Source: a virus (Duplodnaviria > Heunggongvirae > Uroviricota > Caudoviricetes). From it: 12,440 nucleotides of DNA. Both the position numbers and the translations under genes were made by a program. The stretch lies in IMG/VR virus record IMGVR_UViG_2698536348_000004; one strand, 5' to 3'. This document shows positions 1-4,934 of the stretch, one piece after another. The notes under the pieces were generated by a model. It was not told the DNA's origin and made no database searches. It saw only the letters and a program-made list of their open reading frames with translations. Numbering within the stretch: position 1 is the stretch's first letter; every line of letters begins with the position of its first letter.

Positions 1-68
1 TGTGTCAGCTTTTCCGCAAGGTCTGACGGCGACGCCGCCCTGACAACATCATAATGTTTAATCGACAT
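1..68 (-). CDS. Hypothetical protein, N-terminal fragment only (gene runs off the window start); first residues MSIKHYDVVRAASPSDLAEKLT
   Basis: ATG at 66-68 on the minus strand with a GGGAGA Shine-Dalgarno about 7 nt upstream; frame stays open to the window edge. Absent from the ORF track because it is truncated. Competes with overlapping track ORFs 54..287(+) and 117..311(-). Confidence 0.3.
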   Translation of the reverse strand, partial: MSIKHYDVVRAASPSDLAEKLT

Positions 69-611
69 CGAATTTCTCCCGTGTACAGGAACAGAGTTAA
101 AAAGCCGGAACCGGAATCAAATTACAGGATGGCCATCTGCCAGTGGCAGGTCATAAAAAAAAGGCCGCGCCATGCGCAGCCAGAACTCACAAGGAAAATG
201 ATAGAAGGAAATAACATTAGTGATGTACGCATGGCGCCTCCCGCTAAGTTCTGCAATGATCAAACAGAACTCGCTACGTGCCCTTAAAACTCGATCATTT
301 AGCCCCTCCAAGGAGGATTCACCATGCGGTTGATTTTTTAATAAACAGTAAACAAAAAAGTCAAGGATTATTCATTCTGTTTTTTCATCATCGGCCACAG
401 CAATACCACAATGCCGCAGACCAGAGCGCCATCAGTCAGTACCAACATTATCCTGCTGGTGAAATCCATCATCACCATCACTAAAAGCAGGATCACAACA
501 GCAAGCAGACACAGTTTATAAAACAATGTTCAGAAAACGCATTCAGCATGCCTAAGGTTCTATTCCTACGAATAGCCAACTTGCAACTTAAAATATTATT
601 TATGCAGCCAA

Positions 612-1370
612 TTAAATTCTGGTCCTTACAATATCAACCTGAAGATTCTTATCTTGTGCTGATTGATAAATGACAAACCTTTTACTACCTGCATTGAAAG
701 AAGTAGACAAAACCAGACAATTATCATAACGAGCAAGAACATAATACCAACCATCATTATAATTAATCATTTCATATTCTTTCTTAAACTGTGGTTTGTA
801 ATATCCTGTCAGAAATGAAAAAAGCCAGAAATATGCCACAAAAGCAATCATCACAATCTCAAAAAAATGTTTTTTTATAAATGGCTTATCATAGAAGCAT
901 GATACCGATAAAAATCGCCCATAAGATCTTATCGAAATTGTAACCGCCAGCGCAATCGCTGCTGACAGTAGCAAAAGAGGTACCTGAATCTTCTGTCTCA
1001 ATATAGAAAACTCAATAATTGCCGGCACAAACAATAATTCCACAGCAAAATAAAGGCGAAATACATTTAGCTCTTGCATAGAATGTTTTCTTTTCACTGC
1101 GAAAAAGAATACAACACCAATACCCCAACCGATAAGAAATATAGCAATGACGATAACTGCAAAAAATAAACTTCTGGCAACATCATCAACACCTGCACCT
1201 ACAATCCACCATGGGAAGCCGTAGTAAAAAGAAGTACCCCATCCATAGAAATAAGCACTCCCCCATCCAAGGCATCCCATGTAGGCAATAAAAAGTGAAG
1301 AACTCCTGAGCAGCGCACCATCCTTCATAACCACCCCAATACAAGATGATAACATTGGCTTACAACTCAT
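612..1370 (-). CDS. Polytopic inner-membrane protein (about five hydrophobic helices, rich in W/Y/F/G, roughly 60-aa soluble C-terminal tail); function unknown; moron-like
   Basis: 252-aa ORF, AT-rich, first gene downstream of the pR'-like promoter. Five long hydrophobic stretches in the translation. No clear SD at 1370; an internal ATG at 1328 (MKDGALL...) is an alternative start. Confidence 0.65.
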   Translation of the reverse strand: MSCKPMLSSCIGVVMKDGALLRSSSLFIAYMGCLGWGSAYFYGWGTSFYYGFPWWIVGAGVDDVARSLFFAVIVIAIFLIGWGIGVVFFFAVKRKHSMQELNVFRLYFAVELLFVPAIIEFSILRQKIQVPLLLLSAAIALAVTISIRSYGRFLSVSCFYDKPFIKKHFFEIVMIAFVAYFWLFSFLTGYYKPQFKKEYEMINYNDGWYYVLARYDNCLVLSTSFNAGSKRFVIYQSAQDKNLQVDIVRTRI

Positions 1371-1536
1371 AACAAAAGCAATTCAATGCCGTCAAGAGGT
1401 TACAGGCTAAAAAAACTCTATTACATTGCAGTCAGCATGTTTACTACACAAATACAATTCAGAGCATAAAAACTACTCGGCGGCAGGTTATTGAGACTCA
1501 TCAATGACATGTAAAAAACGCCCATTATTGATGTCA

Positions 1537-1565
1537 AGTTTCCCCAAAGTTATTCAAAAAGTCAA
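1537..1565 (-). promoter_or_regulatory. Late promoter pR'-like (Q-dependent), with the Q-utilisation region
   Basis: Minus-strand read TTGACT-N17-GAAACT immediately downstream of the Q stop, followed by TGACATCAATAATGGG. Resembles the lambda pR' segment as I recall it (TTGACTtattgaataaaattgggTAAATT). The -10 is weak. Confidence 0.45.
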
Positions 1566-1607
1566 TATTATGCCGTTAATATGTTGCCATCCGTGGCAAT
1601 CATGGCG

Positions 1608-2231
1608 CTAACGTGTGATCGCATTCAAAATGTTGTCTGCGATTGACTCTTCCTTGTGGCATTGCACAACCAGAGCGTCATACAGCGGCTTAACAGTGCG
1701 TGACCAGGTGGGTTGGGTAAGGTTTGGGATTAGCATCGTCACAGCGCGATATGCGGCGCTTGCTGGCATTCTTGAATAACCGACGCCTTTACATCTTCCG
1801 CACTCTTTCTCAGCAACTATCCCCCACTGCTCTGTTTTGGCTATATCAACCGCACGGCCTGTACCGTGGCAATCTCTGCATCTTGCGCCCGGCGTAGCAG
1901 CACTACGGCAATAATCCGCATAAGCGAATGTTGCGAGCACTTGCAGTACCTTTGCCTTAGTATTTCCTTCGAGCTTTGCCACACCACGGTATTTCCCCGA
2001 TACCTTGTGTGCAAATTGCATCAGATAGTTGATAGCCTTTTGTTTGTCGTTCTGGCTGAGTTCATGCTTACCGCAGAATGCAGCCATTCCGAATCCGGCT
2101 TGTGATTGCGCCATCCCCATAGCAGCCATCACATCAGTACCGGAAAGAGAGTCAGAAGCCGTAGCCCGTGGTGAGTCGCTCATCATCGGGCTTTTTGGCG
2201 AATGAAATTTAGCTACGCTTTCGAGTCTCAT
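1608..2231 (-). CDS. Q: Late-gene antiterminator Q (lambda Q type)
   Basis: 207 aa; starts MRLESVAKFHSPKSPMMSDSPR; Cys-rich zinc-binding segment CRDCHGTGRAV...CGRCKGVG. Near-identical to lambda Q as recalled. Start overlaps the ninH stop. Confidence 0.9.
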   Translation of the reverse strand: MRLESVAKFHSPKSPMMSDSPRATASDSLSGTDVMAAMGMAQSQAGFGMAAFCGKHELSQNDKQKAINYLMQFAHKVSGKYRGVAKLEGNTKAKVLQVLATFAYADYCRSAATPGARCRDCHGTGRAVDIAKTEQWGIVAEKECGRCKGVGYSRMPASAAYRAVTMLIPNLTQPTWSRTVKPLYDALVVQCHKEESIADNILNAITR

Positions 2232-3920: not shown

Positions 3921-4934
3921 TTACTTGTCTGAATCATCCAGTTCGTCTGTTTTCACATCCTCAAACCTTGGATGCAGGCGATTCATTTTTGCAATAAAAT
4001 CTGAATAGTCGTTAGATAGCTTCATAATCGTAACGGTTGATGACAGATGCTCTCTTAATTTTTGATATCCAATATTTGGCGTCAGCCCCTGAAACAACTT
4101 TGTACCTTTTGAGGCCTTTACGTTCTGCTTTTTAAGCTCCTCAAGGATGTTTGGTGCCAATCTCTTGTAGACGATATCATTTGTCAAAACGCCAAAATAC
4201 TGAGGCCGGAAGCGGGGATTTTCCGGCGGGTATTCTAAGCCCCTTAACCTGAAAAGCTCTTCATAATAATCAGCAGGAAATGTTGTAATATAAGGTTGAA
4301 TTTCCTTTGCGACAAAGGCCTCGAGTATTTTGGCGAGCGCATCTTTTTCTCTATCTCGCTGGTACCCCGTCGCTTCATCAACAAGCGCTATTATTCCGAC
4401 TTTAGCTAATGAGCGCACCAGAATTTCAGCTTTCTTGGCTGTCTCTAACTGGTTTGGCCTGGTGATAGCGCCTGCCTCTCTTGCCTTTAAATAAACATCG
4501 CAGACAAGAGGTATTATGGATGCGTCATAACCTTCCTGGACGGAGCCAGTAATCGTCTTGTATTTGACCTTATTGATCACATCCATAACATCTTGATTTA
4601 TATATTTTTTAAGGTTTGCAGCATCCATAAAAGCGGGCATATTGATCACCCCCTCTTCTTGAGGTGCTCTACCCCCTCTTTGTGGTCGGCCAAATGCTTT
4701 AAAAACAGAAGCTTGTGATATGATACGCCGTCCATTTTCGAGAACCGCGACATCTAATTCCGCATCACCGATCTTTAACTTTCCCTCATTCGCAGATACG
4801 GGCAATAAAGCTTTTTCTTTTTTTGCGGCAACAGCCTTTCTTGAGGATTCTTTTCTTTGCTCTGCTGTCATTTTTGCCGCGCGTGCCTTACCGCCTTTGG
4901 CCTTCCCACTAACATCATCATTTTTCATGAGCAT
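3921..4934 (-). CDS. Hypothetical phage protein with a lysine/alanine-rich basic N-terminal region (possibly P63C-domain family, unverified); moron
   Basis: Track ORF 3921..4988, but the first 18 codons overlap a promoter and dyad elements, so the start is more likely ATG 4934 (MLMKNDD) or 4928. Own promoter upstream and terminator downstream. Confidence 0.7.
   Translation of the reverse strand: MLMKNDDVSGKAKGGKARAAKMTAEQRKESSRKAVAAKKEKALLPVSANEGKLKIGDAELDVAVLENGRRIISQASVFKAFGRPQRGGRAPQEEGVINMPAFMDAANLKKYINQDVMDVINKVKYKTITGSVQEGYDASIIPLVCDVYLKAREAGAITRPNQLETAKKAEILVRSLAKVGIIALVDEATGYQRDREKDALAKILEAFVAKEIQPYITTFPADYYEELFRLRGLEYPPENPRFRPQYFGVLTNDIVYKRLAPNILEELKKQNVKASKGTKLFQGLTPNIGYQKLREHLSSTVTIMKLSNDYSDFIAKMNRLHPRFEDVKTDELDDSDK

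Follow-up and report, generated by a model that had tools for sequence, protein, structure and literature searches.

An STM1630-family membrane-protein gene behind Q and the late promoter of a lambdoid prophage

The window considered here is a stretch of 12,440 nucleotides (nt) of a Caudoviricetes virus (IMG/VR record IMGVR_UViG_2698536348_000004), and its subject is the open reading frame (ORF) at 612..1370(-), an uninterrupted run of 252 codons that is the first one 3' of the antiterminator gene Q and a lambda-like late promoter, pR'. From sequence comparisons, the product is a member of the STM1630 family, also catalogued as PF27470 ('TfpB') and phrog_1521, which is as yet uncharacterised. 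Together with the tciB-like gene that follows it, the gene fits the description of a small optional cargo cassette placed after pR', and this cassette is found behind two unrelated Q alleles.

The locus and the reading frame

The features of the left part of the window are as follows, in window coordinates.

1..68, minus strand: start of a SASA-family (NanS-p-like) carbohydrate esterase gene, which extends past the left end of the window (RefSeq, 100%-identical locus NZ_CP148578)
117..311, minus strand: small ORF of 64 amino acids (aa) with a TTG start, of uncertain reality; its equivalent in phage 434 is CPT_434_70, a 62-aa 'putative membrane protein'
155..181, minus strand: first strong intrinsic terminator after pR' (8-bp GC-rich stem at 181..163, then U8)
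368..526, minus strand: tciB-like gene (DUF3927) for a small hydrophobic protein of 52 aa (PF13064, E = 1e-14; phrog_1470)
612..1328, minus strand: STM1630-family gene of 238 aa, the likeliest translated form (conservation, homologue lengths, and structural model)
1329..1370, minus strand: 14-codon in-frame 5' extension that makes up the 252-aa ORF, probably untranslated (the extension is unconserved and Met15 is invariant)
1331..1337, minus strand: Shine-Dalgarno-like GGGGTGG, ending 2 nt 5' of the ATG at 1328 (seen in the sequence itself)
1346..1395, minus strand: putative gene-proximal promoter-like block with two candidates (scan and conservation)
1468..1487, minus strand: degraded remnant of a phage 434 terminator (comparison of folding energies with 434)
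1521..1565, minus strand: lambda-type late promoter pR' (alignment with lambda, NC_001416)
1608..2231, minus strand: antiterminator Q of the lambda type (PF03589, E = 1e-57)

The ORF is a real gene under purifying selection. About 7% of random codons are stops at a GC content of about 35%, and a stop-free run of 252 codons has, by our own estimate, a probability of about 1e-8 per start; a chance origin is therefore excluded. The ORF is conserved, with ratios of nonsynonymous to synonymous substitution (dN/dS) of 0.06 to 0.20 against near relatives (0.055, 0.086, and 0.196, with dS up to 0.32), and hundreds of full-length homologues are consistent with a real gene. The AT-richness reported for it in the initial annotation is confirmed. 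GC content is 0.30–0.41 around the ORF, the AT-richest part of the left half of the window, against 0.46–0.54 in Q and the nin genes.

The length of 252 aa is, however, probably to be corrected to 238 aa. The true start is most likely the ATG at 1328, because Met15 of the longer ORF is invariant in the homologue alignment while the residues upstream of it are unconserved, because most homologues are 237–238 aa long, because GGGGTGG lies immediately upstream, and because both promoter-like elements overlap, or sit downstream of, the first ATG of the ORF. Near-identical RefSeq copies differ in this respect, being given either as a 247-aa 'hypothetical protein' (equivalent to 612..1355) or as a 238-aa 'STM1630 family protein' (612..1328), and the phage 434 record starts the gene at Met6, which yields the 247-aa form. 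The conserved methionine favours the 238-aa version over the 247-aa one.

The cassette behind Q and pR'

That the ORF is the first gene after Q and pR', in the slot that stx occupies in Shiga toxin (Stx) phages, was claimed at the outset and is borne out. Q is identical to lambda Q at 203 of 207 residues (98%), and pR' can be aligned with its lambda counterpart element by element. The -35 element TTGACT (1565..1560) is followed by a 17-nt spacer that contains the counterpart of the lambda Q-binding element, by the -10 element GAAACT (1542..1537; TAAATT in lambda), and by a -10-like pause element, AATAATGGG (1529..1521), at which the homology with lambda stops. The names of these elements are those of established lambda biology.

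The terminators around the cassette bear on when it may be transcribed. In phage 434 the gene is preceded by a terminator (CCCGCT-gccg-AGTGGG followed by U8, at 4880..4905 of locus L003) with a folding energy of -13.3 kcal/mol and z = -3.65. The window has a remnant of it at 1468..1487, with -5.1 kcal/mol, U5, and z = -0.52, which sits at the joint of the lambda-Q/pR' segment with the cassette. A tool scan and a lenient scan found no other terminator in 1329..1607 and none that is credible between pR' and the gene, and the RNA fold of the Q-to-gene leader is not more stable than that of shuffled sequence (z = 0.14). The terminator at 181..163 (-15.2 kcal/mol, z = -3.2, U8) closes a unit made up of the gene, tciB, and the small ORF, beyond which come the esterase and lysis genes, and the annotation of 434 has a terminator at the same site. 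Because the first strong terminator comes after the cassette, the cassette would lie within the pR' leader.

In lambda, pR' is constitutive, and the only product of its leader is a short, terminated transcript. Were the promoter to be constitutive in the window too, transcription of the cassette would not need Q and would be far stronger with it. The earlier expectation of strong late transcription is supported. Readthrough from pR' into the gene independently of Q, expected earlier at a low level, is plausible, there being no credible terminator between the promoter and the gene.

The block next to the gene offers two further promoter candidates. The first consists of TTGACG (1395..1390), an 18-nt spacer, and TGtTATGAG with its -10 at 1371..1366; the second, found by the tool scan, of TTGTTA (1375..1370), an 18-nt spacer, and TGtTATCAT with its -10 at 1351..1346. 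The TTGACG...TTAT block is conserved in the Escherichia copies of the gene, including one adjacent to the genes of the heat-labile enterotoxin (LT; see below). It travels with the gene, and may act as a promoter in the lysogen.

The closest known counterpart of the cassette is that of phage 434. The DNA of the window is 98.6% identical to 434 from 1472 to its left end, and the 434 protein CPT_434_68, annotated as a 'putative membrane protein' (OL657226), is 100% identical to the product; the equivalent in phage 2B8 is 98% identical. In 434 and 2B8, as in the window, the gene directly follows Q, and tciB, the small ORF, and the terminator lie downstream. The two arrangements differ in that 434 has a Q82-like Q, an intact terminator before the gene, and lpxR just upstream of Q, whereas the window has lambda Q and pR', the degraded terminator, and no lpxR.

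The same composition recurs among viral loci, for which neighbours were counted in the best 80 of the 188 IMG/VR contigs that encode a relative. The upstream Q is of the lambda type in 47 of these 80 and Q82-like in 32. The tciB gene follows in every locus with downstream sequence, the esterase (SASA, NanS-p-like) is optional, and the gene, tciB, and the terminator are intact together in 79 of the 80.

In bacteria, the gene is present in 692 of 5,426 complete Escherichia coli genomes (13%), many of them O157:H7, at a median of two places per genome, and 679 of the 692 have a copy of at least 99% identity. The occupants of the slot under the same Q allele, a comparison proposed in the initial annotation, could be surveyed in the 1,230 complete E. 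coli genomes with a lambda-type Q. The exact Q-to-gene junction is found in 572 of them (approximately 46%), and in lambda-Q prophages that have no copy, such as lambda DE3 in BL21, the homology breaks at about 1521–1533. Only three of 50,697 phage records contain a relative (434, and 2B8 in two records), and none of the sequenced Stx phages among these records has the gene. It is because the sequenced Stx phages are without it that the gene and stx are taken as alternative occupants of the slot. The stx genes are carried downstream of Q and pR' in Stx phages (PMC6266700). The cassette resembles such cargo between Q and the lysis genes (stx, nanS-p) in its late-operon position after Q and pR', its AT-richness, and its optional presence. 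Unlike stx, its product is not a toxin, and the cargo here precedes the first strong terminator after pR' and may not need Q.

The gene also has traits of a moron, which we take, in the sense of Hendrix and colleagues, to be an extra transcription unit in a phage genome. It is present or absent at one site, being absent from lambda, from about half of the lambda-Q prophages, and from phage 434B, and present in 434. Its base composition deviates, and the gene is AT-richer than its surroundings in other genomes too. As for a promoter and terminator of its own, there is the strong terminator at 181..163 and the conserved promoter-like block, whose role is putative. The announcement of the 434 genome lists morons among the differences between lambda, 21, and 434 (PMC9119081).

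Optional presence would also be expected of a hitch-hiker, that is, a gene of bacterial origin that entered the Q region by recombination, persists through linkage only, and has no function for phage or lysogen. About half of the lambda-Q prophages do without the gene, truncated or frameshifted homologues exist, and the promoter of the Salmonella relative is lost in ST313 strains. The purifying selection is strong, however, at dS values up to 0.32; 79 of 80 viral loci have kept the gene, tciB, and the terminator intact, and have done so behind two different Q alleles; and copies of at least 99% identity are found in 679 of the 692 genomes. These data make a hitch-hiker improbable.

A second possibility raised by the position is a late-phase accessory of lysis, for example an antiholin-like or timing factor that acts only after induction. 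Such a role would suit a membrane protein whose gene lies between Q and the holin in the late operon and would be strongly transcribed once Q acts. The gene, however, is separated from the holin by tciB, the strong terminator, and usually the esterase gene, and the lysis set downstream is complete: past the esterase, the source genome has a class II holin, lysozyme, and Rz (RefSeq annotation), so that holin, endolysin, and spanins are all present. Identity with a holin or a component of the lysis cassette was looked for and not found; the product has no match to a holin family in Pfam or PHROG, is not encoded next to the holin, and with 238 aa and five transmembrane (TM) helices is unlike holins. 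Its chromosomal and plasmid relatives stand alone, with no lysis genes nearby.

Phage 434B bears on the same question. In this derivative about 5.5 kb containing Q, the late promoter, and the lysis region were exchanged for DLP12 DNA, and the phage was propagated and purified as virions (PMC9119081). In the exchanged place its record has Q, nmpC::IS5, and a holin, and no relative of the gene was found in 434B by tblastn or annotation. The growth and purification of 434B indicate that the gene is dispensable for lytic growth, with the limit that the whole region, including the lysis genes, had been exchanged. Among the three functions suggested initially, namely lysogenic conversion, exclusion, and lysis timing, the last is thus the least likely, and we consider a lysis accessory very improbable indeed.

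Other parts of the window call for brief mention. The small ORF at 117..311(-) has no family match in a Pfam scan, and, since it extends into the terminator, it may not be a real gene; a truncated pseudogene fragment annotated by RefSeq on the plus strand, 45..287(+), overlaps both. Searches of the window for tRNA and Rfam elements found none. In the immunity region, beside cI (8891..9598), lies defence-type cargo at 9659..11569(+) with a GC content of 0.31–0.37. It comprises an ORF of 113 aa at 9659..10000(+) with a full-length match to PADLOC PDC-S43 (E = 5e-42), an ORF of 153 aa at 10068..10529 with no match in the PADLOC scan, and an ORF of 348 aa at 10523..11569(+) for a Ser/Thr kinase (PD-T4-6, E = 1e-37; mad6, E = 7e-50), which we take to resemble the Stk exclusion kinase of phage 933W.

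The STM1630 family

The product had been described as belonging to no known family, and this does not hold. It matches phrog_1521, of unknown function, with E = 2e-154 over profile positions 1–222 of 222; the precomputed Pfam label PF27470, with the short name 'TfpB', is attached to 103 of 103 homologues, including the identical cluster P0001; NCBI has an 'STM1630 family', and the RefSeq protein of that name is a near-identical copy in a locus with 98.6% DNA identity; and the gene is annotated in 434. The gene is therefore already known, as an ordinary 'hypothetical membrane protein' in a well-known cargo slot.

A first, word-indexed search returned 103 related clusters, and 72 representatives (at 50% identity) came from an exhaustive profile search of 1.84 billion proteins. 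The members come from three groups of host-associated Gram-negative bacteria: the Enterobacterales (E. coli, Shigella, Citrobacter, Cronobacter, Klebsiella, Enterobacter, Raoultella, Lonsdalea, Mangrovibacter, Salmonella, and Yersinia), the Pasteurellaceae (Haemophilus ducreyi, Glaesserella, Aggregatibacter, Pasteurella, Actinobacillus, Gallibacterium, Avibacterium, and Mannheimia), and Neisseria. The full-length members, of about 230–307 aa, have a single architecture, and no domain fusions were seen among them. Two records lie outside these groups, a 3-kb contig of a 'Veillonella sp.' metagenome-assembled genome (MAG; JAIITD010000172.1), which contains tciB and a copy 100% identical to the E. 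coli allele, and a partial 55%-identical copy from a MAG labelled Acinetobacter (P0069); both look like mis-binned enterobacterial DNA.

No relative with a known function was found by sequence or fold searches. Scans of the protein against a local Pfam set (which has no PF27470 model), NCBIfam, and PADLOC gave nothing above noise, and a profile search of PDB sequences gave nothing at E ≤ 10. Fold searches returned nothing specific, with best E values of 0.45 for Foldseek against PDB and 0.04 against BFVD. Foldseek also gave weak local alignments, of about 75 residues with the SH3-like C-terminal domain of HIV integrase and others with MscS-type channels. None was treated as homology, and the integrase ones suggest no more than that the C-terminal tail may be a small barrel.

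The architecture given in the initial annotation, with five helices, an aromatic first helix, and a C-terminal tail of about 60 aa, agrees with hydropathy, an AlphaFold2 model, and loop charges. Hydropathy has four clear TM segments and a less hydrophobic, aromatic- and glycine-rich N-terminal one. AlphaFold2 gave a poor model from a shallow alignment (predicted local distance difference test, pLDDT, 58), while a deeper alignment that included relatives of 12–30% identity gave a pLDDT of 79 and a predicted template modelling score of 0.73, with no segment below 50. In this model, helices span residues 10–36, 47–78, 89–111, 116–139, and 155–181, and a five-strand beta domain spans 184–235, a tail of about 55–60 aa. 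The mean number of lysines and arginines in 34 family members is 1.9 in the N-terminus, 0.06 in loop 1, 2.7 in loop 2, 0.5 in loop 3, and 2.9 in loop 4. Because the charges of the loops alternate, the positive-inside rule places the N-terminus inside and the C-terminus outside. The protein is thus predicted to be an inner-membrane protein with five TM helices in an N-in/C-out orientation. This would put the segment LGWGSAYFYGWGxSFYYGFPWW, which covers loop 1 and the end of helix 1, on the periplasmic side together with the C-terminal beta domain.

Conservation is highest in this predicted periplasmic segment. The first helix and its loop have 12 aromatic residues in 27 by our count, and the pattern A-Y-x-Y-x-x-G...Y-Y-G-F-P-W-W at the end of helix 1 is the most conserved stretch of the protein, nearly invariant from E. 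coli to Neisseria. The only residues that are invariant or nearly so throughout the family are A15, A25, Y26, Y28, G37, F167, G175, and Y195, and the family-wide alignment contains no polar residue conserved across the whole family, which would argue for binding rather than catalysis. In the enterobacterial subgroup, D48, R52, S53, and R91 are invariant and E106 is nearly so.

The predicted plan and the Pfam short name raise the possibility of a type IV pilus or pseudopilin accessory that binds the N-terminal helices of pilins, as proposed for the TfpY/FimB-like proteins. Those proteins have conserved N-terminal TM helices, a periplasmic beta-sheet domain, an unknown biochemical function, and no HHpred relatives (PMC11841053); the likeness, drawn from their description, lies in N-terminal TM helices combined with a periplasmic beta-containing C-terminus. 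In one metagenomic relative, a gene of the N_methyl pilin type lies 2 kb downstream, and deletion of STM1630 has a motility phenotype (below). The TfpY-like proteins, however, combine three TM helices with a much larger periplasmic domain of the alpha/beta type, and their genes come directly after that of the major pilin (PMC11841053), whereas the protein of the window has five TM helices and an all-beta tail of about 55 aa. No pilin gene adjoins the family gene in more than ten contexts examined, and the Salmonella phenotype is one of flagellar motility. Finally, no TfpB-named protein turned up in the homologue searches, and no member from Moraxella, whose tfpB ORF presumably gave the Pfam entry its name. 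A pilus accessory is accordingly considered quite improbable.

Genomic contexts and published data on relatives

Outside the phage 434-like cassette, the gene is found in varied surroundings. Another type of E. coli prophage has a copy of 68% identity in the order Q, methylase, gene, lpxR (convergent), PmrD (in one locus), esterase, and holin. A copy of 59% identity lies about 870 bp from eltAB, the divergently oriented genes of LT, and about 3 kb from the gene of the heat-stable toxin STb, in contigs of 70–112 kb from E. coli that are rich in insertion sequences (L028–L032, 6001..6714). An E. coli chromosomal islet has a copy of 57% identity between an iroBC-like pair and a Bor gene. The Klebsiella copy is part of the integrase-proximal cargo of an integrated element with SRAP, umuDC, reverse transcriptase, and resolvase genes.

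In Salmonella the copies are 46–49% identical overall, and the 238-aa proteins of S. diarizonae and S. arizonae are 48–49% identical over residues 1–238. The gene adjoins a 408-aa ORF identified as SseJ and has frmRA on its other side. In Citrobacter the neighbourhood on the frmA side is as in Salmonella, and a fragmented lpxR takes the place of sseJ. In H. ducreyi, Aggregatibacter, Glaesserella, Neisseria arctica, and Avibacterium, it is a lone gene between housekeeping genes. The Glaesserella parasuis gene (L012 6955..9017(-)) follows, after an 8-nt gap, a 248-aa ORF taken as tsaB, and it adjoins three ORFs that, from their translations, resemble cdtC, cdtB, and cdtA.

No partner gene is conserved across the contexts. 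The tciB gene is absent beside the relatives outside E. coli phages (Salmonella and Pasteurellaceae), and the idea that it is an obligate partner was rejected for this reason. The unit that moves consists of the coding sequence and about 50–70 nt upstream. A phage origin of the LT locus was likewise rejected, only the gene and about 70 nt upstream of it being common to the LT-adjacent and phage copies.

The neighbour that recurs is lpxR, which lies within 0.2–2 kb of family members in three arrangements, adjoining the gene in two and about 1.4 kb from it in the third (L121–L123, 6972..7919; L124, 4863..5823; L003, 2708..3667; L021, 7092..8051); PmrD occurs once, and in phage 434 and in EC4115 lpxR is just upstream of Q. 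The LpxR copies differ by 23–30% between contexts (70–77% identity) and the family gene by 32–34%. The two have thus diverged in step, which suggests that they have long been linked and do not stem from a single recent insert.

The published data concern STM1630 of Salmonella, which has the length, architecture, N-terminal aromatic and glycine motif, and C-terminal domain of the protein in the window. It differs in being chromosomal and beside sseJ, with its own promoter and with neither a prophage nor tciB. STM1630 is among the genes co-regulated with Salmonella pathogenicity island 2 in virulence-regulator mutants (PMC2639726), and it was picked for study from macrophage transcriptome data, the -10 element of its promoter being disrupted in ST313 strains (bioRxiv 10.1101/689075). 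It lies next to steB (STM1629), and its deletion was hypermotile in a screen, with swimming at 1.72 times and swarming at 1.62 times the reference (PMC4219756). Nothing relevant came from searches of the literature for DUF3927/TciB or for ORFs of the pR' region.

The favoured reading of the gene, which holds about half of our confidence, is a moron expressed in the lysogen that acts on the host envelope and alters a surface property. The gene and tciB would have been inserted directly after pR', within its leader and ahead of the first strong terminator. Transcription in the lysogen would then proceed without Q, from pR' or from the promoter-like block, and would rise strongly once Q acts after induction. 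The inner-membrane product would bind a conserved component of the envelope, non-catalytically, through its periplasmic motif and beta domain, and the resulting change of the surface or envelope would be a lysogenic conversion or a fitness factor in an animal host. The data show the gene and its family, slot, cassette structure, purifying selection, and dispensability in lytic growth, with the topology as predicted; expression in the lysogen, non-enzymatic action, and an envelope target are all inferred. In favour of this reading, the relatives are not phage-specific and are often found among virulence or fitness genes of animal-associated bacteria. The LpxR and PmrD neighbourhood, the co-regulation of the PhoP/SsrB type, and the altered motility are leads, and no more, towards the outer surface or lipid A.

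Several points weigh against an envelope moron. The topology is a prediction, and the residues D48, R52, S53, and R91, invariant in enterobacteria, and the nearly invariant E106 leave room for an enzymatic or transport role in that group. On paper, the -10 GAAACT of pR' is weaker than the TAAATT of lambda. The proximity to virulence genes and LpxR may reflect only a shared pool of AT-rich cargo. Deletion of STM1630 caused no defect of replication in macrophages (bioRxiv 10.1101/689075), and a follow-up study of motility re-made the STM1630 mutant and analysed it no further (PMC4534456).

Many of the same properties would suit a protein of superinfection exclusion, of anti-phage defence, or of immunity to a bacteriocin or effector, which would block DNA entry or neutralise a membrane toxin through the periplasmic motif and beta domain. 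P22 SieA, HK97 gp15, and T4 Imm are stand-alone inner-membrane exclusion proteins of small to medium size, known as prophage cargo expressed in lysogens, and they provide a functional analogy. The family gene is likewise a single gene with no conserved partner that mobile elements carry; it is patchily distributed, genomes often have two copies of it, and its product is polytopic with no catalytic residues. The Klebsiella copy is integrase-proximal cargo near reverse transcriptase and umuDC genes, and the prophage of the window itself contains the PD-T4-6-like kinase and the PDC-S43 candidate.

Other observations count against such a protein. Neither the gene product nor tciB matches any model of PADLOC-DB 2.0 at E ≤ 0.01, and 34 diverse family members scanned against Pfam gave no recurring weak match and no exclusion or immunity family. 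In contrast to SieA, gp15, and Imm, the gene has no similarity to the exclusion and defence families of Pfam, PHROG, or PADLOC, and its family is also chromosomal and far more conserved. A motif that hardly varies between E. coli and Neisseria suggests that its partner is a conserved one of the host rather than a fast-evolving invader, and the chromosomal copies of Salmonella, Neisseria, and the Pasteurellaceae lie amid ordinary genes, that of Salmonella being co-regulated with virulence genes. An exclusion or immunity function is therefore possible but unlikely.

The reading of the gene as an envelope moron may be extended to the whole family, in a form that we regard as speculative and rather doubtful. 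The family would be an unrecognised mobile single-gene conversion factor, non-enzymatic and envelope-tuning, perhaps in concert with lipid A remodelling, and common to phages, to toxin plasmids, and to pathogenicity islets in the Enterobacterales, the Pasteurellaceae, and Neisseria; in the present phage it would be wired into the pR' leader, expressed in the lysogen without Q, and boosted on induction.

The interest of the gene is modest, and lies in its abundance in enterohaemorrhagic E. coli, its occupancy of the stx slot, and the toxin or envelope-remodelling genes that recur beside its relatives (LT/STb, cdt, sseJ, iro-like, and lpxR). The degraded terminator suggests a simple route by which a phage may turn Q-dependent cargo into cargo expressed in the lysogen; loss of a terminator may also free late-operon cargo from Q, and nothing in the locus would surprise a phage specialist. 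A defined phenotype for the gene would annotate thousands of genomes, and would reveal what cargo other than toxins lambdoid phages subject to control by the late promoter.

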